A DNA stretch of 64,000 nucleotides, taken from Chryseolinea sp. Its GTDB lineage: Bacteria > Bacteroidota > Bacteroidia > Cytophagales > Cyclobacteriaceae. The notes under the pieces were generated by a model that had not been told where the DNA came from, did not search any database, and saw only the letters and a list, made by a program, of their open reading frames with translations. Each line of letters starts with the position of its first letter. The stretch's first letter is position 1. Location of the stretch: contig JAICGJ010000004.1 of assembly GCA_025923195.1 (NCBI GenBank), forward strand, positions 12,610 through 76,609, in the 5' to 3' direction. The position numbers were made by a program, and so were the translations under genes. Below are positions 33,854 to 48,676 of this stretch, piece after piece.

Positions 33854-34258
33854 TTAATGGCAATCCTTGAGATGAGGCATCACCTTTTCGACAGGCTTGG
33901 GCTTGATCTTCATGATATCTGTTGGAGTATGGCAGACAACGGCGCAGCGGTTGAAGATCACGATAGGGTACTTTATTAAATGGCTATCGTGAACCAGCAC
34001 CTCTAACCATCCATCCATCGTATAAGTATTAGTTGAAACTTTTGCCTTGTAGTCAGGATGAGAATGATCCAATAAATCGTTCGGATGGACGTGAGCCATG
34101 TTAAGGATTTCTTTCCAGTACGTTGGCGAAAGGCGCTCATGCACTACATCAACTTCATTCAAATGTTTACACATATCATGTGCTATCGCCCTGGTTTGTT
34201 TACCGACATTGGAATGTGGATCGTATACCAAAAACAGCTCATTGGGGTGGAATTGCAT
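33854..34258 (-). CDS. ArsC/Spx-like thioredoxin-fold protein (no N-terminal redox Cys seen)
   Basis: Size and N-terminal beta-alpha pattern (ELFLVYDPHSNVGKQTRAIAHDM..) resemble the ArsC/Spx/YffB family. Assignment is weak. It lies 81 nt downstream of nuoN on the same strand. Confidence 0.4.
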   Translation of the reverse strand: MQFHPNELFLVYDPHSNVGKQTRAIAHDMCKHLNEVDVVHERLSPTYWKEILNMAHVHPNDLLDHSHPDYKAKVSTNTYTMDGWLEVLVHDSHLIKYPIVIFNRCAVVCHTPTDIMKIKPKPVEKVMPHLKDCH

Positions 34259-35782: not shown

Positions 35783-37307
35783 AAGTGTCTCCTTTCATGA
35801 TATCCACATATAAGTTATCCGGGACGACCGTTGTCGAATGATTGGCCTGGATTGGATCCAGCGATGGCCTCACCGTATCCAATATTGGTTGAGGATATAA
35901 TCCGAGCCAAACGATGATAAGGACAAGAGGAACAAGGATCAGTTTTTCCCGGAATGACAGATCGCTGAGCTGATGAGTGTTTTCCTGCGTGCCATAGAAT
36001 ACTCGCTGCATAATTCTCAGGGAATAAATTGTGCCTGCCACCAAACCCACCGCTGCCAGAATGGTGAGTTTATGAGTGGCTTTCCAGGAGCCGATGAGCG
36101 TTAAAAACTCCGCGATAAAATTTCCCAACCCTGGCAATCCAAGAGACGCCATCGCAAACACAAGCCCTATAGTGCCCATGAACGGCATTTTTTTCCAGAA
36201 TCCTCCCATTTGTCCTATATCGCGCGTGTGGATTCGCTCATAAATAGAACCAGCTAGAATGAAGAGCGCGCCTGTGCTGATGCCATGTGTGATCATCTGC
36301 ATAACGACACCTTGCGTAGCCCATTCGTTGAACGCAAATACCCCGAGCATTATAAACCCCATATGACTAACGCTCGTGTAAGCCACAAGCCTCTTTAAAT
36401 CAGTTTGTGAGAAGGCCAACAAGGCTCCATATAGAATACCAAACACGCCTAACGACATGGCCCACGGAGCGATCTCATGCGCTGCGCCTGGAAACAGCGG
36501 AACAATAAACCGGAGCAATCCATATGCACCGGTTTTGAGTAATAATCCCGCCAATATAACGCTGCCGGCCGTCGGTGCTTCAGAATGTGCGTCAGGTAAC
36601 CACGAGTGAAATGGCACCACTGGCAGCTTGACTATGAAGGCTGCGAGGAATCCAAGCATTAGCCAACGTTCAGCCTCTGCAGAAAATTTTGTGCCAATCA
36701 GCTGAAAATAATCGAAGGTAAAGGTGCCAGTTAAATTTCCATGTATATAGTATAGACCTAGAATAGCAAGGAACATTAGTAACCCGCTAGCCTGGGTGAA
36801 AATGAAAAATTTATAGGCAGCATATCGCCTGTTTTCGTGTCCCCATATCGCGATGAGAAAATACATAGGGATCAGCATGACCTCCCAGAAGAAATAGAAC
36901 AGGAACAAATCCATAGTCAGAAACACCCCGGTGATTCCGGCCAGCACCCACAACAAATTAAAATGAAAGAATCCGACCCGGTACTGTATTTCTTTCCAGG
37001 AAGTAAGCACAGCAAACATGCCCAACAGGAAAGTCAGCAGCAGCATCAACAAACTTAGTCCATCGAGGGCCAGATTGAAGCTTATTCCAAAGCCGGGTAT
37101 CCAGGGTAAATTGTATTTCGCCAGCCACGCCGAATTCGAAAGGTCCATGAGGTATTCCTGTTCCATCCAGAGAAGAAAGGTTATTATAAAGTTTGCAAGC
37201 AGTGCAATTAGAGAAATCCAACGTGAAACGTTCGTATTAATCCGGGCGCCAATCCAAGCGACAATCCCTCCGGCCATAAGCATGATAATCAAAACGGGAA
37301 GTATCAT
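35775..37307 (-). CDS. nuoM: NADH-quinone oxidoreductase subunit M
   Basis: 510 aa antiporter-like subunit (..PFHSWLPDAHSEAPTAGSVILAG..). 4-nt overlap with nuoL. Confidence 0.92.
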   Translation of the reverse strand: MILPVLIIMLMAGGIVAWIGARINTNVSRWISLIALLANFIITFLLWMEQEYLMDLSNSAWLAKYNLPWIPGFGISFNLALDGLSLLMLLLTFLLGMFAVLTSWKEIQYRVGFFHFNLLWVLAGITGVFLTMDLFLFYFFWEVMLIPMYFLIAIWGHENRRYAAYKFFIFTQASGLLMFLAILGLYYIHGNLTGTFTFDYFQLIGTKFSAEAERWLMLGFLAAFIVKLPVVPFHSWLPDAHSEAPTAGSVILAGLLLKTGAYGLLRFIVPLFPGAAHEIAPWAMSLGVFGILYGALLAFSQTDLKRLVAYTSVSHMGFIMLGVFAFNEWATQGVVMQMITHGISTGALFILAGSIYERIHTRDIGQMGGFWKKMPFMGTIGLVFAMASLGLPGLGNFIAEFLTLIGSWKATHKLTILAAVGLVAGTIYSLRIMQRVFYGTQENTHQLSDLSFREKLILVPLVLIIVWLGLYPQPILDTVRPSLDPIQANHSTTVVPDNLYVDIMKGDTYE

Positions 37308-39184
37308 AGCAGTAGCCCCAAGGTTAAGATCAGGATTGCACCTATTACCATGCTCATAATATACCAGCGGAGAATTCCTCCCTGTGAACGGGCAAATATT
37401 CTGTGCAGAAGTTCCGTTGTATAAACGATTAGCGAATAAAATTTGTCAACTATGTCGTTCTTGTTAACTGTCGCAAGAAAAACATATGGCTTCACAAGTA
37501 CGCTGTCATACAGATTATCAAATCCCCAACCCATAAACCAAAAACGATGAAGACCGGCCAAAGAGCTTTTCAGCTGAGATGCCTGTTCAGGCTTTCGGAC
37601 ATAATAATGATAAGCGATGAAAATACCCACTAGTGACAGCACCATCGTGATGCCCTGGATGGTCCATTCCATCCCTGTTGTAGCACTCGGATCAACTGCA
37701 ACGGCTGGTAATACGGGCTTCAGAAAGTCTGAGAACAATTCAAGATGCCCAAGTGTGTGAGGAAGCTCAATAAATCCTCCTACCAGGGAGAGTACTGCCA
37801 GGATAACCAACGGTATAGTTATTCGCGCACCTGTGTGATGTCCTACGGCGGTTTTGGCTTCCCCAAAGAAAGTGACGAAGACCATTCTGAAGGTGTATAT
37901 TGACGTGACAAACGCACCAGTCAATCCAGCAAGGAAAAACCATATATTTCCTTTTTCTCCGGCAAATGAAAGCCAGAGGATACTGTCCTTACTGTAGAAG
38001 CCGGCTGTGATGAAGGGTAGGGCGGCTAATGACGCAGACCCAATCAGGAATGTCCAATAGATCACGGGAAGTTTATTTCTTAGTCCTCCCATTTTAAACA
38101 TGTCGTGCTCATGGTGTAAGACCATAATTACCGCGCCCGCGCCAAGGAATAATAATGCTTTGAAAAATGCGTGGATCATAAAATGAAAAATAGCGGCCGA
38201 CCAGGCGCCAACTCCTAGGGCAAGGAACATATATCCTATCTGGCTAATGGTGGAATACGCCAGCACACGCTTCAAGTCAAACTGTGTAAGGGCGCTAAAC
38301 CCTGCGATCAGCAACGTGAGGGCGCCGATTATTCCAACACATAGCTGTGCCGTAGGCGAGAGCTCAAAGATGACGTGCATACGTGCGATCAGATAAACAC
38401 CGGCGGTAACCATTGTGGCAGCATGGATCAATGCGCTGACTGGTGACGGACCAGCCATAGCATCGGGCAGCCATGTCTGTAAAGGAAGTTGAGCAGATTT
38501 TCCAACAGCACCACCTAAAAGCAGCAGGGCAACAACCATAGCAGTTTGCGAACCGACAGACCAAAGCTGAGGGGCTTGTTCTAAAATGTCATTGATGATT
38601 AATGTGCCGAAGATATCAAAGAGCATGAATAATCCGATTGCCATGGCCGTATCGCCAACACGTGTTACAATAAACGCCTTTCGTGCTGCGTCACCATTTT
38701 TCTTCTCTTCATACCAAAAACCGATCAGCAGATAGCTGCATAGACCCACACCCTCCCATCCGAGATACATCAACACCAGATTATCAGCCAGTACTAAAAT
38801 CAACATGGATGCAACAAAGAGGTTCAGATAAGCAAAAAATCTGGCGAAGCCCTCGTCTTCCGCCATGAACTCGGTTGAATACACGTGTATCAAGAATCCT
38901 ACGAAGGTGATGACAAAAATAAAAACCAGCGAAAGTGAATCCAGGTGAAACCCAAAAGCAGGGCTCAATCCCGCAACATCAATCCATTGCCATAGCACCT
39001 GTCTGAACGGCCCGGCCGCGGGAGCATAATTCAAACCTATCAGGATAACCAGCAGCGCTGACAACCCAACACTGCCCGCGCCAACAAAAGACGCTGCTAT
39101 ACGTGAGAGTTTTGTCCCAAGGATTATCAGAATGATTGCACCCAGGAAGGGGAGAGCAGGCACTATCCAGAGTAGTTCTGTCAT
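37304..39184 (-). CDS. nuoL: NADH-quinone oxidoreductase subunit L
   Basis: 626 aa (..LPLQTWLPDAMAGPSPVSALIHAATMVTAGVY..), with the position expected for nuoL. Confidence 0.92.
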   Translation of the reverse strand: MTELLWIVPALPFLGAIILIILGTKLSRIAASFVGAGSVGLSALLVILIGLNYAPAAGPFRQVLWQWIDVAGLSPAFGFHLDSLSLVFIFVITFVGFLIHVYSTEFMAEDEGFARFFAYLNLFVASMLILVLADNLVLMYLGWEGVGLCSYLLIGFWYEEKKNGDAARKAFIVTRVGDTAMAIGLFMLFDIFGTLIINDILEQAPQLWSVGSQTAMVVALLLLGGAVGKSAQLPLQTWLPDAMAGPSPVSALIHAATMVTAGVYLIARMHVIFELSPTAQLCVGIIGALTLLIAGFSALTQFDLKRVLAYSTISQIGYMFLALGVGAWSAAIFHFMIHAFFKALLFLGAGAVIMVLHHEHDMFKMGGLRNKLPVIYWTFLIGSASLAALPFITAGFYSKDSILWLSFAGEKGNIWFFLAGLTGAFVTSIYTFRMVFVTFFGEAKTAVGHHTGARITIPLVILAVLSLVGGFIELPHTLGHLELFSDFLKPVLPAVAVDPSATTGMEWTIQGITMVLSLVGIFIAYHYYVRKPEQASQLKSSLAGLHRFWFMGWGFDNLYDSVLVKPYVFLATVNKNDIVDKFYSLIVYTTELLHRIFARSQGGILRWYIMSMVIGAILILTLGLLL

Positions 39185-39392
39185 GGTTGTTTCTGTTATC
39201 CGTTATCCGTTATCCGTTATCCGTTAATAGTTATCCGTTATCCGTTACTAGTCAATAGTTAATAGTTAATAGTTAATAGTTTTTAGTTTTTATTGGTGGC
39301 TCATCAATTTAGCAATCAGCTGCAGACCGTTGAGCAGCACCACACCCTCGCTCACCCCCACTTTTATCGGATAACGGATAACTGATAACGGA
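39185..39392. repeat. nuoK-nuoL spacer element: 14 phase-locked heptamers, a core, a C-rich box and an inverted heptamer arm
   Basis: 39196-39293 reads TTATCCG x4, TTAATAG, TTATCCG x2, TTACTAG, TCAATAG, TTAATAG x3, TTTTTAG, TTTTTAT with no phase break. CACCACACCCTCGCTCACCCCCAC lies at 39339-39362. GGATAAC GGATAAC TGATAAC GGAT at 39369-39393 is the reverse complement of the left arm. Confidence 0.9.
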
Positions 39393-39701
39393 TCATCCCT
39401 TCATCTTATTCGCCGCATCACTATCCAGTGTTTTGAGCTGGTGATAGATCTGCAGGATCAACGCAAGCCCTACAGAGACTTCTGCTGCGGCCATGGTTAG
39501 TATGAAGATGAACATTACCTGTCCGTCTGCCTGTGACCACTTTGCGCCCGCTACCACAAAAGCAAGGCCCGCTGCGTTCAGCATGATCTCCACGGAAATC
39601 AGCATAAAAATAATATTGCGCCTGATCAGTACGCTGATAAGACCCAGCGTAAAAAGAACGCCTGCCAATATTAGTCCCGCTTCCGTAGGTACCTGGTCCA
39701 T
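39393..39701 (-). CDS. nuoK: NADH-quinone oxidoreductase subunit K
   Basis: 102 aa, 3 TM (..[30 protein letters not shown]..). Confidence 0.92.
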
Positions 39702-39924
39702 GGGTTATCCGTTATCCGTTATCCGTTAATAGTTGATAGTTAATAGTTAATAGTTATTAGTTATCCGTAAATAGTTAAGCTTTATACCTAATACATAATA
39801 CCTTATTCCCTTATTCCTTATTCCTTACTCCATTATAACTTCAGCAGCGCCTGTTCATCTGCGCCACACTCACCCCACACTCACCCCCACACCCACGATT
39901 AACGATTAACGATTAACTATTAAA
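39702..39924. repeat. nuoJ-nuoK spacer element: 11 phase-locked heptamers, CCTTATT x4, a core, a C-rich box and GATTAAC x3
   Basis: 39705-39781 reads TTATCCG x3, TTAATAG, TTGATAG, TTAATAG x2, TTATTAG, TTATCCG, TAAATAG, TTAAGCT. CCTTATT-type units lie at 39801-39829. CCACACTCACCCCACACTCACCCCCACACCCAC lies at 39864-39896. GATTAAC x3 lies at 39897-39917. Confidence 0.9.
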
Positions 39925-40452
39925 CTAACTAGCTTCTTCCTCCAAAAACCTGTGAACAATTTTCTTCTTTTGTCGTCCCAAGTGATATGCGCCAACGATC
40001 CCTGCCATTAGTAATATTCCACTCAGTTCCACACCTATAACGTAAGGTCCGTAGAGTGACATCCCTACAGCTTTGGAGTCAACAATCTGCGCGTCCGATG
40101 GGGCAACTTGTGCTCCCACAATAATGTAAATCAGCTCTGCCAGCAGCACTAGCGACAGCAATGCTGGTCCGGTGATGATCCCGCGACTTAACCATTGCCG
40201 CTCCTGCGCGACTGCCTCCTCTTTGAGGTTCAGCATCATAATAACAAAAATGATCAGCACGACAATAGCACCAGCATAGATGATCACCTCGAGCGCCGCG
40301 ACAAAAGGTGCTCCTAAAAGATAAAAAACGACCGCTACTGCCAAGAATGAAACTACTAAATATAGCAGGGCATGAATCAGGTTATGATTCGTTATTACCA
40401 TCACTGTTGCAATGACCGCAATGGCCGATGTTATGTAGAAGGCGAGTTGCAT
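39925..40452 (-). CDS. nuoJ: NADH-quinone oxidoreductase subunit J
   Basis: 175 aa, 5 TM (..VVFYLLGAPFVAALEVIIYAGAIVVLIIFVIMML..). Confidence 0.9.
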   Translation of the reverse strand: MQLAFYITSAIAVIATVMVITNHNLIHALLYLVVSFLAVAVVFYLLGAPFVAALEVIIYAGAIVVLIIFVIMMLNLKEEAVAQERQWLSRGIITGPALLSLVLLAELIYIIVGAQVAPSDAQIVDSKAVGMSLYGPYVIGVELSGILLMAGIVGAYHLGRQKKKIVHRFLEEEAS

Positions 40453-40623
40453 TATCTGTTATCTGTTATCTGTTATCTGTTATCCGTTAATAGTTTATAG
40501 TTTATAGTTTATAGTTTTTAGTTTTTAGTTTTTAGTTTTTAGTTTTTAGTTTCTAGTTTTCCCCACTCACACACCCACGTATAACTGATAACGTATAACT
40601 GATAACTGATAACGGATAACTCC
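40453..40623. repeat. nuoI-nuoJ spacer element: 16 phase-locked heptamers, a C-rich box and 6 inverted heptamers
   Basis: 40452-40563 reads TTATCTG x4, TTATCCG, TTAATAG, TTTATAG x3, TTTTTAG x5, TTTCTAG, TTTTCCC in one 7-nt phase. CCCCACTCACACACCCAC lies at 40561-40578. GTATAAC TGATAAC GTATAAC TGATAAC TGATAAC GGATAAC lies at 40579-40620. Confidence 0.92.
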
Positions 40624-41148
40624 CTAAGGCAAGAGACTGCGAACATCCACCGGAGGATCTTCATTCTGTGCTTCTCCTTTATCTTTTCCTCCGATCGCCA
40701 ATCCAGCAACTTTATAATAGTTGTAACCTGGATATTTCCCCTGTCCGTCAATAAGCAGATCCTTTTTTTCGTATACCAGGTTCTGACGATCATATTCGCC
40801 CATCTCAAAATCAGGTATCAGTTGAATGGCATACGTCGGACATGCTTCCTCGCAATAGCCGCAGAAAATACACCGTGAAAAATTAATTCGAAAGAACTCA
40901 GGATACCTCCTGCCATGTTCGTCTTCAGTTGCCTGCAGCGAAATACAATCTACCGGACAGGCTGCAGCACAAAGGTAGCATCCAACACATCGTTCACCCA
41001 TATCCGGATCCCGCGTCAGGACAATTCTTCCCCGCCAACGCGTCGTGAGCTTATTCTTTTGTTCGGGATACTGGACGGTTTCACGCTTATGAAACATGTG
41101 CATAAACGTGATCCACATACTGCGAATGATGCTAAACATATTTTCCAA
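40624..41148 (-). CDS. nuoI: NADH-quinone oxidoreductase subunit I (2x[4Fe-4S] ferredoxin)
   Basis: [12 protein letters not shown] and [12 protein letters not shown] motifs. Confidence 0.93.
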
Positions 41149-41195
41149 TTTTTATAGTCCCAACTTCCGATCTTTCAATCTTCAAATTCAACCTT

Positions 41196-42158
41196 TCAGC
41201 CTTCTCGCATCAAAACTACACCTGCCGTTATCATCAAGTTGATCAATGTGAGCGGCAGGAGTATCTTCCAACCGAATTCCATCAGCTGATCATAACGCGG
41301 CCTCGGAAGTGACGCCCTTAGCAAAATAAATAGTGCTATAAAGGCAAACGTCTTCAATACAAACCATACCAAAGGCGGAAGAAAATCTGGTCCAAGCCAT
41401 CCGCCAAAAAACAGGCAAACCGTAAGGCTTGAAATCAACGTTATGCCTAGGTATTCCCCAACGAAAAACATCCCGAATTTCATTCCCGAGTATTCGGAGT
41501 GAAATCCAGCAACTAGTTCGCTTTCGGCTTCCGGAATATCAAAAGGAAGGCGATGAGTTTCCGCTATGCCCGCGATAAAGAATATCACGAAGCCAACGAA
41601 CTGCGGAATCACGAACCACATACCTCTTTGCGCTTCAATGATATCAACGAGGCTGAATGAGTTGGCCAACAATACCGTGCCCATCAGCGCTAGTCCCATG
41701 AAGACTTCGTACGATATCATTTGTGCTGCACCCCGCATAGCACCGAGCAATGAATATTTATTGTTGGAGGCCCATCCACCCAGGATAATGCTGTAGGCAC
41801 CCATTGAAGACATTGCCAAAAAGAAAAGTATTCCAATATTCAGATCCGTAACAATTATTCCCGGTGCAAAGGGAATGATCACAAAGCTGAAGAATACCGT
41901 AATCATCACGATGGCTGGAGCCATGACAAACACGACCTTATCAGCAAAAGGAGGAATCCAGTCTTCCTTAAAAAAAAGCTTTATGGTGTCAGCCAATACG
42001 ATGAGCACCCCAAAAGGACCGGCTCGGTTGGGGCCATAGCGGTCCTGCCACAGCGCTAACAGTCTTCTCTCTAGCCATATAAGACCGGGGGCCACTATGA
42101 GCAATCCGCCCAATACGCCACCGACGATAAGCAAATGATTTATTGTTGCTTCATCCAT
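41196..42158 (-). CDS. nuoH: NADH-quinone oxidoreductase subunit H
   Basis: 320 aa polytopic protein (..[15 protein letters not shown].., ..[29 protein letters not shown]..). Confidence 0.93.
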
Positions 42159-44848
42159 TTCATTTCCTTATTAAGAATACCCCATGCCGGCAATTCAACA
42201 AATGGAAGACCCGGTAGCCCATATGGCAATCCCGCCATGCCTCTAGGCATTTCGCTACTTACTTTAACCGGTAATTGATAAGGTTGACCGCCTACCTCGA
42301 ATGATAGCTCCTCATTTTCATGAATTTTCAGATCAGCAGAATCGGCAGTGTTGACCATGACGTATGGTGCCGGACAACGCTCGCCCACGGCCGGAGACCG
42401 CGCGCTTAATTCTTCTGAACCAAAAATATGGTGCAGGGGTACAATCAGCAGGTGGTCCTCTTGTGATTCAAATATCGCGGGGTCTGACTTAAAATACTGA
42501 ATTTTCGAAGTCTGAACGGGTTCAAAACACCGTATGCCTGGATCCCCGTCGCGCAACGGTCCGCCTACTTCCTGTTGATATTTGTTGATGGATTGTACAG
42601 AATTCCAACCAGGAGCCCAGAAGAAAGGAATCATGGAAGATGGTGGTAGCCCGCGGAACCCCTCCATTGTATACGACAAAGGTGAATCAGAATCTACAGG
42701 AGGCTTGGGTTCACTCACATTTATGTTTGCCAACATCGCAGTGCGACCGCTAAAACGATGTGTCTCTCGCGGAACCCGTTGTCCATTTATTCTGAATCCC
42801 GCGGGAGGGCTTACTTTGTCTATATTCTTCAAAAACGGTTCTTCCTTGGCAATAGCCTGGGTGATATCTTCAAAACTTTTCCAATGTGACATTTCATCAA
42901 CTCCCAAGGCCGTACCCAACCCCAGCAGCCATCGCCAACTTTCCTGTATGTTCTCGGTTGCCTCATACACCTGGAAGAATCGTTGAATACGTCCTTCATT
43001 GTTTACGAGCGTTCCATCGGATTCTGCGAACGTTCCAGAGGGTATTAAGATATTCGCTTTTTCAGTCGTGGGATTTGGAGAATGATCGAGGACAATAATA
43101 TTCTTGCAGACTTTCAAAAATTCATCAACTATAGATTTTTTACCATGCCGGTACAAATCATTCTCCATGATAATGGCTGTATCGGCGTGACCATTCAGTA
43201 CGGCGTTAAATGCAGCTTCCAATCTATGACCGCCCATCATTGCAAGTCCCAATGAGTTGCATTCAGGGAGAGTAAGTACAATCCCGGCTTGCTGGTTTTT
43301 GCGATGCAACGCCCACGCTATGTTGGCTGCAGCTTCGAGCACGTGATCCGTCTCACACGACGCACCTGAAATAATTACGGGACGTTTTGCCATGGACAAA
43401 ATGCTGGCAATCTTCTGTGCCAGTTTGCTTTCTTCCGGCGAGAGACTTGCCTCTTCAGGACTGTCATCGTCCAGCAGGTGAGCCACGGCAAATCCAAGGC
43501 GCGCAATTTCGTCTGGTGACGAGTGGAAGGTTTCCGTCGCTACATCATCAAGTTTTGTCGTGTGAACAGACGCAATAAAAAGCGGACCTTTTTGCTCCTG
43601 AACCAATTCCCGCACCGCGCCATCATGCCAAGCAGGAATGTTGATATGAGCCAGCTGCTCCATGGGTTGTCGGCGAACGCTTTGCCTTACAGCAAGCGCC
43701 ATCATGGGTGCTGTGTTGGTAAGGTCCTCACCTAAAATAAAAACGGCATCAGCAAGTTCGACTTCTTTCATCGAAAGAGTGGGGGCAGGGCCCTCGTGAA
43801 GTATTTTTATGACAAGGTTGGCAAGGTCGTGCTCATTATCTGAAACACCATGGTAAAAATTGTTTTTACCGACAAGCATTTTTAGTGCAAAGTTTGATTG
43901 AACTGAAGCTCTGGGCGAACCGATCCCAATAACCTTCGATGATCCTATCAAGTGTTTCATCCTTTCCGTTACTTCCTCTTTCCTTACCACTTCCGTATCG
44001 CACACAGCTTTGCGTATTCTGCCAGGGGCATTTACAAACTCGTATCCAAAACGACCTCGGTCGCAAATAAAGTAACCATTTACCGCTCCATTATACCTGC
44101 TGGTGATTGAACGCAATTCCCCATAGCGCTCTCCGGCGATGATATTACACCCAAGGCTGCAATGCTGACAAACAGAAGGCGCCGTGGTGAGGTCCCATTT
44201 ACGCGTATAGTGTTGCTTTAATGTCTTGTCGGTAAACACACCGGTGGGACAAACTTCGGTGAGATTTCCGCTGAATTCGCTTTCCAATACGCCGTCTTCA
44301 TGCCTCCCAAAATAAACATTGCTGCGGGAGGCGAACACATCCAGATCCTTTCCGCCAGCATAGTCTTTATAAAACCTGACACAACGGTAACACTGGATGC
44401 AACGGTTCATTTCATGATTGATGAAAGGGCCAAGGTATTGATTTTTGTGCGTCCTTTTTTTGAAATTGAAGCGTCTGTAGGCGTGACCTGTCATCACGGT
44501 CATGTCCTGGAGGTGGCATGAGCCGCCTTCGTCACACACCGCGCAGTCATGAGGGTGATTGGTCATCAGCCATTCAATCACATGCTCACGAAACTCCCTT
44601 GCTTCTGCATCCTGTATTGAAATGCGCTGATTGTTTGCTACGGGTTCCATACAAGACATGATCAGCCTTCCCTTTTTATCGTCTTCATCTCTGTACATCT
44701 TAACTGCACATTGGCGGCATGCGCCCACAGATCCTAACGATGGATGCCAGCAGAAATATGGCAGGTCAAAACCCAGGGTCAGACACGTCTCCAGAAGATT
44801 TTTTCCGGCTTTCACGTCATAGGGTTTGTTGTCGATGTAGAGCGTCAT
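42140..44848 (-). CDS. nuoG: NADH-quinone oxidoreductase subunit G (long, about 900 aa, E. coli-like form)
   Basis: N-terminal 2Fe-2S and 4Fe-4S Cys motifs ([17 protein letters not shown]; [18 protein letters not shown]; [10 protein letters not shown]) plus a molybdopterin-oxidoreductase-like C-terminal region. Confidence 0.93.
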
Positions 44849-44930
44849 GGGTCAGTAATCAGTAGTCAGTTAAGTGCTTAGTAGTTAATAGTTATTAGTT
44901 ATTAGTTAACACGTATGTCCGTTCTCGCGA
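44849..44930. repeat. nuoF-nuoG spacer: about 8 heptamers (TCAGTAA/ATTAGTT type) plus a 9-bp hairpin straddling the nuoF stop codon
   Basis: 44852-44907 reads TCAGTAA TCAGTAG TCAGTTA AGTGCTT AGTAGTT AATAGTT ATTAGTT ATTAGTT. TCCGTTCTC (44918-26) pairs with GAGAACGGA (44937-45). A GGATAAC unit at 44943-49 lies inside the nuoF 3' codons. Confidence 0.8.
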
Positions 44931-46801: not shown

Positions 46802-48583
46802 TTATCTGTCAATATCCGCCAGTACATAATCCATTGCACCGAGAATGCTCAACAAATCTGCGACGGTATAACCACGGCTTATATAGGGTAACATTTGCAT
46901 ATGTGCAAAGGATGGGGTACGAATCCGAACTCGATATGGGGACGTATTACCATCACTGACGGCAAAATATCCGTTTGCGCCCTTAGGTGCCTCGATACAG
47001 CTCAAAGCTTCTCCTCCTGGGATAACAGGTCCCCAGCTAACACCTAGAAAATGCGTAATGAGTGTCTCTATATCCTGCATTGTATTTTTTTTAATTGGTG
47101 GTGTTGTGAGCGGGTGATCCGCTTTATACGGACCCGGCGGCATATTTTTCCAGCATTGTTCGATGATCCGAAGACTCTGACGCATTTCTTCAACTCGTAC
47201 AGCAGCGCGATCAAAACAGTCGCCGTTATTTCCCAGTGGCACGTCGAAGTCGAACATTTCATAACCTGAATACGGACGTTTTTTTCGGAAGTCCCAATCA
47301 AAACCGCAGGCTCGCAGGTTGGCACCCGTCGCCCCCCATTCAATGGCTTCCTCGGTTGTAAAAATTCCTATGCCTTCCGTCCGAGCCTTAAACAAACTGT
47401 TCTTCATTACCAGGTTGTCGTATTCGCGAAGGCGGGCCGGAAAATAATCAATGAATTTCTTAACGAGCGAGTCCCAGCCGACGGGTAGGTCCTGTGCAGT
47501 ACCACCGATTCGAAACCAGTTCGGGTGCATTCGTCCGCCACAGACGGCCTCAACAATATCGAATACCCTTTCCCGGTCTGTGAACATGTAGAAGACAGGG
47601 GAGAGCTGGCCGACGTCCTGTGCAAAAGTACCGTACCAAACCAAGTGACTGGCAATTCTGAAAAACTCGCACATCATGACACGAATTACTTTTGCCCTTT
47701 CAGGGACCGTGATGCCTGCAAGATTTTCGACTGCTAATAGATAGGCGAGGTTGTTGTTTACTCCACCCAAATAATCGATCCTGTCGGTGTAAGGAATATA
47801 GGTGTGCCATGATTGACGTTCAGCCATTTTTTCAGCACCGCGATGGTGAAAACCGATGTCAGGCACGGCCTGGACAATATCTTCGCCGTCCAACTGTAAG
47901 ACTATGCGCAAGACGCCATGCGTTCCCGGGTGTTGCGGTCCGATATTCAGGAACATGAAATCAGATTCATCGCTATGAAGTTCCATGCCCCACTCCTCAG
48001 GACGGAATTGTAGTGCTGATTGTTCCAGGTCCTGCTTTTCCTGCCATAAGCGGAAGGGACCCATCTCTGTCGCCCTCGCGGGGTGTTCTTTTCTCAATGG
48101 ATGACCTTCCCACGTAAGGGGCATCAGGATTCTCGTCAGGTGTGGATGTCCATCAAAGTGAATACCGAACATGTCGTAAACTTCGCGTTCATACCAATTG
48201 GCATTAGCCCAAAGCGCCGAGATGCTGGGTACGGCAGGATAATCTTCGCGCAGGGCAATCTTGATGCGTATGAACGTATTGCGGTCAAAGGAAAAAAGAT
48301 GGTATACGATGCTAAAATGTGAAGTGGGGTAGTCACCATCCTTCTTTCGGCTTCGTTCGTCAATGGCCGTCAGATCGAATAAGAAAGGGAAGGGATTGGG
48401 GATTTCAGATTTAAGAAACCTTAATACTTCAACGATGCGATCCAACGGTACCCAAACGGTGAGTAGATCATCCTTTGTTACTTGCTTGGTGAATGTTGCT
48501 TCACCAAACCTTAAATTCAAACTTTCTGTTGGATCAATGTTCTCCATAAGTTTATGGTGGATGTCCAATGGTTCACAGTCCAT
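46802..48583 (-). CDS. nuoC: Fused NADH-quinone oxidoreductase subunit C/D
   Basis: A single 593-aa ORF. The N-terminal part is NuoC-like (..[19 protein letters not shown]..) and the C-terminal part is NuoD-like (..[14 protein letters not shown].. ending ..[12 protein letters not shown]). Confidence 0.93.
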
Positions 48584-48676
48584 AGTCTATAGTCCATAGC
48601 CGCTGTTCTTAAGTCTTTGTGCCTTAGGCCCTCTTCATTGCCATGGACCATCGACCATGGACCATGGACTTTCCTC
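48581..48676. repeat. nuoB-nuoCD spacer: CATAGTC-type heptamers facing CCATGGA-type heptamers
   Basis: CATAGTC TATAGTC CATAGCC lies at 48581-48601 and starts on the nuoCD start codon. CCATGGA CCATCGA CCATGGA CCATGGA lies at 48641-48668. The arms are imperfect reverse complements (AGTCCATAG vs AGTCCATGG). Confidence 0.8.

Follow-up and report, generated by a model that had tools for sequence, protein, structure and literature searches.

The nuo operon of Chryseolinea sp. (Bacteroidota; Cytophagales) was analyzed on a 64,000-nt stretch of contig JAICGJ010000004.1 (assembly GCA_025923195.1), hereafter called the window, in which the genes lie on the minus strand. Gene identities were taken from Pfam families on the identical or near-identical products of three metagenome-assembled genome (MAG) contigs from NCBI (L001 to L003; L-numbers are labels of comparison loci). 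Remeasured on the open reading frame (ORF) map, the nuoK-nuoL, nuoJ-nuoK, and nuoI-nuoJ spacers (K-L, J-K, and I-J) are 208, 223, and 171 nt long, while other junctions of the operon are overlaps of 4 nt (A/B and L/M), 8 nt (M/N), and 19 nt (G/H), all in agreement with a preliminary description made from the letters of this DNA alone. The three long spacers are intercistronic inserts of hypermutable heptanucleotide microsatellites of the GATAAC/TAACTGA family, and they follow one polar plan.

Tandem Repeats Finder (TRF) located period-7 arrays at 39195-39292 (K-L), 39704-39778 (J-K), and 40452-40560 (I-J), and cutting these into 7-mers recovered 14, 11, and 16 units, respectively, each set in a single unbroken register and of the unit types reported before (TTATCCG/TTATCTG, TTAATAG, TTTATAG, and TTTTTAG). 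The period-7 match scores of K-L, J-K, and I-J were 0.88, 0.88, and 0.98, above every one of 1,000 dinucleotide-preserving shuffles per spacer, and the same was found for all five array-bearing nuo spacers (0 of 1,000 shuffles matched the observed score), which thus qualify as long simple sequence repeats and exceed what base composition predicts. When periods of 3 to 12 were scored over the 64 kb, 7 alone attained 0.8. The earlier statement that the spacers are built almost entirely from heptads holds for I-J (about 89% of the spacer), whereas in J-K and K-L the share is about 60%. The preliminary description had also overlooked a second, inverted heptad array beside the upstream stop codon of each spacer (39368-39393, 39895-39923, and 40577-40620), the stop-to-start hairpin, and the way in which the design is oriented with respect to translation. 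A G-rich block is present in each of the three spacers, being in J-K an 11-12-nt tandem repeat (39864-39896), and further, smaller heptad arrays lie in the nuoF-nuoG (F-G; 44852-44909) and nuoB-nuoCD (B-CD; 48577-48599 and 48641-48669) spacers. The J-K block resembles a (GGGTGTR)n heptad array that stands after a stop codon in a Microcystis locus (L091), where (TGATAAC)n precedes the next start.

On the mRNA strand, the order of parts in the three spacers is the stop codon, a reverse array (GUUAUCN)n [(GUUAAUC)n in J-K], the G-rich block, a short unique core, A-rich heptads (AAAAACU, AAACUAU, and AACUAUU), a forward array of UAACGGA or UAACAGA, and the AUG. The forward variant arrays stop 0, 2, 11, and 3 nt short of the AUGs of nuoJ, nuoK, nuoL, and nuoG. 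Exact TAACTGA occurs on the plus strand at 40582, 40596, 40603, and 39379, the copies thus standing in reverse orientation after stop codons, and the other units are mostly the one-base variants TAACGGA and TAACAGA. At 40596-40609 of the plus strand, TAACTGATAACTGA is a tandem of TAACTGA, giving at least two adjacent exact copies, with the match of the arrays as a whole to the exact unit being partial. As the units are TAACTGA or one-base variants of it, the arrays were assigned to the TAACTGA family and to the long simple sequence repeats. The parts of each spacer are summarized in Table 1.

TABLE 1 Spacers, repeat arrays, and flanking genes of the nuo operon (positions in the window)
Feature	Position	Strand	Basis
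nuoL, downstream cistron of the K-L spacer	37304-39184	-	Pfam Proton_antipo_N/M on identical product
K-L spacer, 208 nt, whole hairpin element	39185-39392	-	ORF map; fold
K-L start-proximal forward array (UAACGGA)n, 3' stem arm, ending 11 nt before the nuoL AUG	39195-39247	-	TRF, 7.6 copies, period 7
K-L A-rich forward heptads AACUAUU and AAAAACU, in the register of the 3' arm, mostly unpaired in the predicted fold	39244-39292	-	TRF; register check; fold
K-L G-rich block GUGGGGGUGAGCGAGGGUGUGG, immediately 3' of the 5' arm	39340-39361	-	Sequence; alignment
K-L stop-proximal reverse array (GUUAUCN)n, 5' stem arm, right behind the nuoK stop	39362-39393	-	TRF (39368-39393); inverted repeats
nuoK	39393-39701	-	PF00420
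J-K spacer, 223 nt	39702-39924	-	ORF map
J-K forward arrays (UAACGGA)3 grading into (AACUAUU)n, ending 2 nt before the nuoK AUG	39704-39778	-	TRF; 11 units
J-K core heptad array (AAGGAAU)n	39801-39836	-	TRF, period 7, 4.9 copies
J-K G-rich block, 11-12-nt tandem repeat GGGGUGAGUGUG	39864-39896	-	TRF, period 11/12, 2.8 copies
J-K stop-proximal reverse array, 5' arm, following the nuoJ stop: (GUUAAUC)n	39895-39923	-	TRF; inverted repeat
nuoJ	39925-40452	-	PF00499
I-J forward arrays: (UAACAGA)4 and UAACGGA directly adjoining the nuoJ AUG and passing into (AAACUAU)n and (AAAAACU)n	40452-40560	-	TRF; 16 units
I-J spacer, 171 nt	40453-40623	-	ORF map; fold
I-J G-rich block CGUGGGUGUGUGAGUGGGG	40561-40579	-	Sequence; alignment
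I-J stop-proximal reverse array (GUUAUCA, GUUAUAC)n, from 3 nt past the nuoI UAG; exact TAACTGA tandems on the plus strand	40577-40620	-	TRF
nuoI	40624-41139	-	171-aa gene call; Fer4 families
F-G spacer: forward heptads UAACUAA and UAACUAU followed by UAACUGA-like units, the last of them 3 nt from the AUG; no inverted partner	44849-44930	-	Sequence; TRF (44852-44909)
B-CD spacer: hairpin of another heptad, (GUCCAUG)4 after the stop (48641-48669) and (CUAUGGA)3 (48577-48599); nuoCD start as in the 581-aa gene call of L001	48548-48676	-	Sequence; TRF

The outer arrays of the three spacers are mutually reverse-complementary, forming inverted repeats of 24 to 34 nt with 79 to 91% complementarity. 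In K-L, the forward array at 39195-39247 pairs with 39360-39393 over 34 nt (91%), and in J-K, 39895-39923 pairs with 39726-39754 (86%). The predicted RNA folds join the ends of the spacer in K-L (-61.9 kcal/mol, z = -5.45) and I-J (-40.1 kcal/mol, z = -3.98). Stems in the predictions have 23 to 57 base pairs. When the 5' 45 nt of each spacer was hybridized in silico with its 3' 45 nt and compared with 200 shuffles, the arm duplex energy gave z values of -7.9 (I-J), -6.4 (K-L), -3.84 (B-CD), and -2.45 (J-K). In the predicted I-J fold, the stem base includes pairs formed by the A and G of the nuoJ AUG, and in that of K-L, 16 A-rich nucleotides that include the nuoL AUG are left free. An alignment of I-J, J-K, and K-L with the I-J spacer of a relative at 89% identity (L127) yielded one modular design, in which the GTGGG.GTG columns of the G-rich block are invariant.

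Several other kinds of element were looked for in the spacers. No Rfam family matched at gathering score in the 64 kb or at an E value of ≤1 over 39100-40700, and reading of the window spacers revealed neither small ORFs nor the Bacteroidota -7 promoter motif TAnnTTTG. A G-quadruplex in the G-rich block was rejected upon reading, the G runs being inconsistent between spacers, as was a DnaA box at TTATCC, which is similar at only 5 to 6 of 9 positions.

Within the window, the arrays are confined to the nuo operon. A census of its 49 junctions found period-7 arrays at 5 of 12 nuo junctions and at 0 of 37 others, and among the nuo junctions of at least 50 nt, 5 of 6 hold an array. The longest nuoCD ORF (46802-48583) begins at an ATG within the B-CD heptad array (48583), and the MAG gene call of 581 aa begins at 48547. 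NuoG (42140-44848), which follows the F-G array and overlaps nuoH, is unusually long at 902 aa and is split into 651 and 230 aa in L124. Beyond nuoN lies a 134-aa ORF (33854-34258) with no Pfam match, whose position is kept in L001 to L003 and L125.

Comparison of the window with the three MAGs, whose NuoL is identical to that of the window, revealed length differences in whole units. The I-J spacer, 171 nt long in the window, reaches 178 nt in L001 and 220 nt in L002, with 6, 8, and 10 units in the 5' arm and 16, 14, and 18 units on the 3' side, respectively. J-K is 223, 211, 223, and 187 nt long in the window and the three MAGs, having gained or lost single 7-nt units in three separate arrays as well as one 12-nt unit of the G-rich block: L001 has one 12-nt copy fewer, L002 has 2 reverse units versus 3, L003 has fewer (AAGGAAU)n copies, and the number of forward units also differs in L002 and L003. 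The K-L spacer is of constant length in all four.

In relatives at 85% NuoJ identity, the I-J, J-K, and K-L spacers are 20, 37 to 40, and 39 to 50 nt long, and at 78 to 81% identity they are 34 to 82 nt. The long spacers of the window therefore represent lineage-specific expansions. NuoJ relatives carry the names Cyclobacteriaceae bacterium or Chryseolinea sp., placing the window in Cytophagales (Bacteroidota). At the K-L junction, the empty site CAATGAAAAACTATTGA of L208 matches CAATAAAAACTA ... TTGA of the window, that is, the edges of the AACTAnn expansion, around four inserted heptads; this alignment, together with reading of the sequence, is suggestive of growth in place. The whole-unit differences between strains, the short junctions of relatives, and the empty-site edges agree with the slipped-strand or duplicative growth suggested in the preliminary description, and it is well supported by these comparisons that the arrays expand and contract in whole units by slipped-strand mispairing.

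The design recurs beyond the window. Among 80 metagenome loci with a NuoJ relative, lineages with at least 72% NuoJ identity often have expanded H-I, I-J, J-K, or K-L spacers, and more distant ones mostly have junctions of 0 to 10 nt. The order (GTTATCN)n, GTGGG, (NGATAAC)n is repeated in I-J of L127 and L152, in J-K and K-L of L135, in I-J and K-L of L136, and in all three spacers of L137, and between species, the arms are the conserved portion of the K-L spacer. Hairpins at such junctions can also be built from unrelated arm units with a period of 7 to 9 nt (AGTTGTT/AACAACT, GGTTTGT/ACAAACC, GGTCTGT/ACAGACC, and GUCCAUG in B-CD), the arms staying complementary. In the orthologous H-I spacers of L144 and L146, which have 8-nt units, the 5' and 3' arms are TTGAAGTG and CACTTCAA in one versus TTGATGTG and CACATCAA in the other; this matched change through both arms indicated that the arms evolve together.

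Spacers of other make were also seen at nuo or other junctions. The nuoH-nuoI spacers of the window (41140-41195), L135, and L136 contain the purine-rich 8-mers GAAGATTG, AAAGATYG, and AGGATTAT, which are repeated directly and have no inverted counterpart. The K-L spacer of L131 and L133 has a tandem repeat of about 23 nt (GGATTAYAGGATTTGTGGATGATCA), the J-K spacer of L191 and L194 has a 324-nt insert of two copies of about 160 nt, and in a Prevotellaceae spacer (L059), five heptad arrays of different kinds follow one another.

A pattern scan of species-representative genomes for GTTATCNGTTATCNGTTATC returned at least 120 stretches, which yielded 138 arrays. The matches listed are mostly from Cyanobacteria and Beggiatoaceae, and the rest include Poribacteria, Planctomycetota, Acidobacteriota, Chloroflexi, Verrucomicrobia, and several Bacteroidota families. 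Among the 138 arrays of these listed matches, those within 30 nt upstream of a start codon have forward units in 35 cases and reverse units in 1, and those within 30 nt downstream of a stop codon have reverse units in 32 and forward units in 7. Stop-to-start hairpins of the window type were found in Poribacteria, Pyrinomonadaceae, Desulfohalobiaceae, Thermoanaerobaculia, and two Saprospiraceae MAGs, one of which (L110, 4506-5998) has the hairpin between rpsC and rplP. In a Chroococcus ribosomal protein operon, a forward-only array of GATAAC-type units lies between rpsS and rplV (L014, 3164-3871).

Two of the 138 arrays, one from Chloroflexi and one from Verrucomicrobia, lie just upstream of nuoJ, for which a rough estimate of the chance expectation, assuming a few thousand intergenic regions per genome, is about 0.03. 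On Chloroflexi contig CAADGU010000489.1 (L117, 6061-6147), a nuoH-like gene and nuoJ are separated by an 87-nt spacer made up solely of (GGTAATC)4 and then (GATAACC)5, which is a minimal stop-to-start hairpin. In the Verrucomicrobia MAG JAFLEH010000003.1 (L018, 295-1936), the nuoI-nuoJ arms (GTTATYG)5 and (GATAACN)3 enclose a 132-aa gene of the PF05635/TIGR02436 family ("23S rRNA intervening sequence protein", four-helix bundle), which looks like a cassette within a heptad-armed hairpin. A jackhmmer search over all loci (>200) found such a gene in L018 only, and the window spacers have no ORF; a general link between heptad hairpins and PF05635 genes was dropped, as it would rest on this single locus. 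In L126 (8646-10528) and L207 (3-1363), an opposite-strand gene takes the place of nuoI before nuoJ; that of L126 belongs to the beta-lactamase family, and the NuoJ of L126 is identical to that of L125, whose operon is intact. Splitting of the nuo operon, the presence of a second copy, or a mis-assembly could account for the arrangement.

In IMG/VR, (GTTATCN)3 arrays were found on more than 119 contigs of viral or proviral origin (L212 to L330). The orientation rule is weaker there, reverse units after stops being dominant (48) and those before starts also common (22). Viral contigs could be a route for the horizontal spread of the arrays.

Repeats of this family have been described before. 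Tandem intergenic TAACTGA heptamers, in forward orientation and ending a few nucleotides before start codons, were reported from marine Beggiatoaceae, 15 Cyanobacteria, and 5 Bacteroidetes, in arrays of up to 43 copies, including arrays within ribosomal protein operons (MacGregor 2015, PMC4679880). They may be mixed with other heptamers, are missing from close relatives, and close all three reading frames; one set in Flexibacter litoralis is reversed and lies just behind a stop codon, and nearly all sets are direct repeats, an inverted repeat being noted once among 170 sets (PMC4679880). The author proposed a role in translation via S1, cold-shock, or CsrA-like proteins (PMC4679880). Heptanucleotide arrays in Bacteroidota are hence not new as such. 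For a nuo operon, the literature searched described no arrays of this kind. In a Nostoc preprint, deletion of heptamer repeats altered reporter output, by a mechanism that was not resolved there (10.1101/2022.06.06.494920); beyond these two reports, no later work explaining TAACTGA-type repeats was found in the literature searched. The window arrays resemble the TAACTGA family in being tandem intergenic 7-nt units that are forward before starts and, in occasional sets, reverse after stops, in lying in an operon of a multi-subunit machine, and in their sporadic distribution, as the scan matches cover the same groups along with further phyla and relatives at 78 to 85% NuoJ identity lack the arrays. 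They differ in that paired reverse and forward arrays fill the intercistronic spacer as a hairpin, in the G-rich block, in their clustering in nuo, and in the dominant unit, which is GGATAAC or AGATAAC rather than TGATAAC.

The cyanobacterial STRR heptanucleotides, said to have been described by Mazel et al. in 1990, reportedly form tandem arrays in intergenic and intercistronic positions, with several unit types per genome. They are a genome-wide family of heterocystous cyanobacteria, the host here belonging to Cytophagales; their units reportedly differ from those of the window, and an opposed-array hairpin does not define them. STRR had been named as the nearest analogue, which is reasonable, but the TAACTGA heptamer (PMC4679880) is closer, its units being matched exactly or with single-base changes. 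With the long simple sequence repeats of 5 to 11 nt, as this class of Mrazek 2007 is summarized in PMC4679880, the window arrays share the 7-nt unit, a length beyond chance, and slippage dynamics; the class as summarized there is descriptive and silent on polarity, pairing, and operon position. Coupling stems, standby sites, and shunt bypass offer a functional analogy only: a stem has the end of the upstream ORF at one foot and the AUG of the downstream one at the other, with an A-rich unpaired stretch adjoining. REP/BIME, ERIC, and Correia elements are co-transcribed intercistronic imperfect palindromes with arms of fixed sequence and many copies genome-wide. The window spacers are likewise intercistronic imperfect palindromes that are predicted to fold in the mRNA and that exist in several copies of one design, whereas their arms are microsatellites and, within the 64 kb, the copies are found only inside the nuo operon. 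Nothing on paired-array hairpin spacers, the G-rich block, the concentration in nuo, or the recurrence before nuoJ was found in the literature searched. Taken together, the spacers belong to a known but obscure repeat family, and the new part is their hairpin organization, their operon specificity, and their cross-phylum recurrence at one junction.

Translation initiation in Bacteroidota, and largely in Cyanobacteria, does not use Shine-Dalgarno pairing. The best explanation of the whole, to which we assign a probability of about 0.4, is that these polar, slippage-grown hairpin spacers keep the nuo cistrons translationally coupled. Each spacer would be transcribed within the nuo mRNA and fold into a long imperfect stem, at the base of which the stop codon of one cistron and the AUG of the next would lie a few nucleotides apart. 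On terminating at the first of these, a ribosome would then melt the stem base and expose the start region, and the unpaired A-rich heptads may offer it a standby site or a landing site of the S1 type. In this way, the membrane-arm subunits would still be translated in a coupled manner across a gap of 170 to 220 nt, in a phylum without Shine-Dalgarno pairing. Each forward unit also contains UAA, by which every reading frame is closed immediately ahead of the AUG. The role of the spacers in coupling, or in Shine-Dalgarno-independent initiation, is putative. In its favor are the paired arms and the shared modular design, the length changes in whole units, the orientation of units relative to starts (35:1) and stops (32:7) among the matches listed, the recurrence of the hairpin in relatives and other phyla, the matched change of arms, the confinement of the arrays to nuo junctions in the window, and the translational role proposed by MacGregor (PMC4679880).

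A number of results weigh against translational coupling. The whole J-K spacer folded no better than its shuffles (z = +1.0), and the F-G array, which has no partner arm, gave an arm duplex z of +0.12. Comparison of sense and antisense folding energies, used as a test of RNA-level selection, gave a mixed outcome with no trend; as the two strands fold about equally, selection on the RNA is not separable from maintenance of a palindrome in the DNA. In duplexfold predictions, the first paired base lies at median distances of 2 and 4.5 nt from the stop or start, but the span of the stem relative to the spacer did not differ clearly from that of controls, shuffled spacers giving a similar value (0.10 against 0.07), and this distance metric was not used. 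The unit numbers of the two arms vary independently between strains (6, 8, and 10 versus 16, 14, and 18 in I-J), and the arm complementarity of GATAAC-type units could merely follow from two separate orientation rules. Relatives at 78 to 85% NuoJ identity cope with hairpin-less spacers of 20 to 80 nt, so the element is dispensable. The strain variants derive from MAG assemblies, in which tandem repeats can be mis-assembled; as a typical read is longer than the arrays and unit composition differs too, real polymorphism is likely. Finally, co-transcription and folding of the spacers are assumptions of the coupling model.

Several of these points suit the main rival, a minority possibility that deserves serious weight, according to which the arrays are neutral or selfish microsatellites that grew by slippage where tolerated and became palindromes through inverted duplication and arm-to-arm gene conversion, with no function in nuo. 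Such repeats would be expected to be lineage specific and missing in close relatives, to be highly polymorphic in copy number with arms that do not compensate each other, and to fold without strand asymmetry, all as observed; heptanucleotides are also the commonest class of long prokaryotic simple sequence repeats (Mrazek 2007, as cited in PMC4679880), and GATAAC-type units are common in viral contigs. What this reading leaves unaccounted for is the strong orientation bias toward starts (35:1) and stops (32:7) among the matches listed, the restriction of the window arrays to nuo junctions (5 of 12 versus 0 of 37), the involvement of the same junction in three phyla, the conservation of the K-L arms between species, and the consistent polarity of the design, in which the G-rich block faces the stop and the A-rich arrays face the start. 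Conserved arm sequences and the use of one unit in distant phyla under a strict orientation rule would also be expected if the units were bound, as RNA or DNA, by S1, a cold-shock protein, or another regulator, with the hairpin being secondary and the genes forming a posttranscriptional regulon as MacGregor proposed. Her argument (PMC4679880) and the altered reporter output upon heptamer deletion in Nostoc (10.1101/2022.06.06.494920) favor such binding, but hairpins of unrelated 7-9-nt units (GUCCAUG, UUGAAGUG, and GGUUUGU) occupy the same kinds of junction and the window encodes no candidate binding protein, and we consider this account unlikely.

The predicted stems, at 23 to 57 base pairs, would suit processing by RNase III or another endonuclease, which would cut the nuo polycistron into segments of differing stability, as with the intervening sequences of 23S rRNA. 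The PF05635/TIGR02436 gene inside the nuoI-nuoJ hairpin of L018 fits this idea, yet it occurs at only 1 of >200 loci, and the regular mismatch at each 7th position may weaken recognition, and we consider processing quite unlikely. That same gene, seen as a cassette between the arms, together with the nonrepeat blocks GTGGG.GTG and GCTGCTGAA shared by I-J, J-K, K-L, and the I-J spacer of L127 and the presence of one arm type in many phyla and viral contigs, would suit copies or remnants of a mobile palindromic element, akin to a MITE (miniature inverted-repeat transposable element) or a cassette, inserted three or four times in the operon. Against such insertions, no target-site duplication was recognizable, including in alignments to the empty sites of L208 to L210, no terminal repeats besides the arrays, no transposase nearby, and no copies outside nuo within the 64 kb were seen, and parts of the arrays seem to have grown in place from the ancestral spacer; we regard a mobile origin as improbable. 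The difference in unit number between strains would also be expected of a phase-variation (contingency) locus that switches nuo expression. Since the arrays lie wholly between the stop and start of consecutive same-strand genes, rather than in a reading frame or promoter spacer, since complex I is a housekeeping function, and since reading of the spacers showed no promoter motif, switching of this kind is extremely unlikely.

The translation of internal cistrons in the long operons of stoichiometric complexes in Bacteroidota and Cyanobacteria is poorly understood. A wider proposal, which we advance as doubtful, is that Shine-Dalgarno-independent expression of internal cistrons has a dedicated device in stop-to-start hairpins whose arms are microsatellites: the stem would pass the terminating ribosome on to the following AUG, whether through coupling or through a bypass resembling a shunt, and the slippage-prone arms would make the strength of this hand-off heritably tunable. 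The device would have been recruited repeatedly, possibly by horizontal transfer, before nuoJ, at the boundary of the peripheral and membrane arms, and in ribosomal protein operons across several phyla. The heptad spacers are hypervariable strain markers and a likely source of contig breaks and start-codon miscalls, as may be the case for nuoCD. The hairpin layout would give the obscure TAACTGA/STRR-type repeats an anatomy against which a function can be judged, and a polar hairpin element that recurs exactly between stop and start, with a natural allelic series in arm length, is a concrete candidate for a part in internal-cistron translation.

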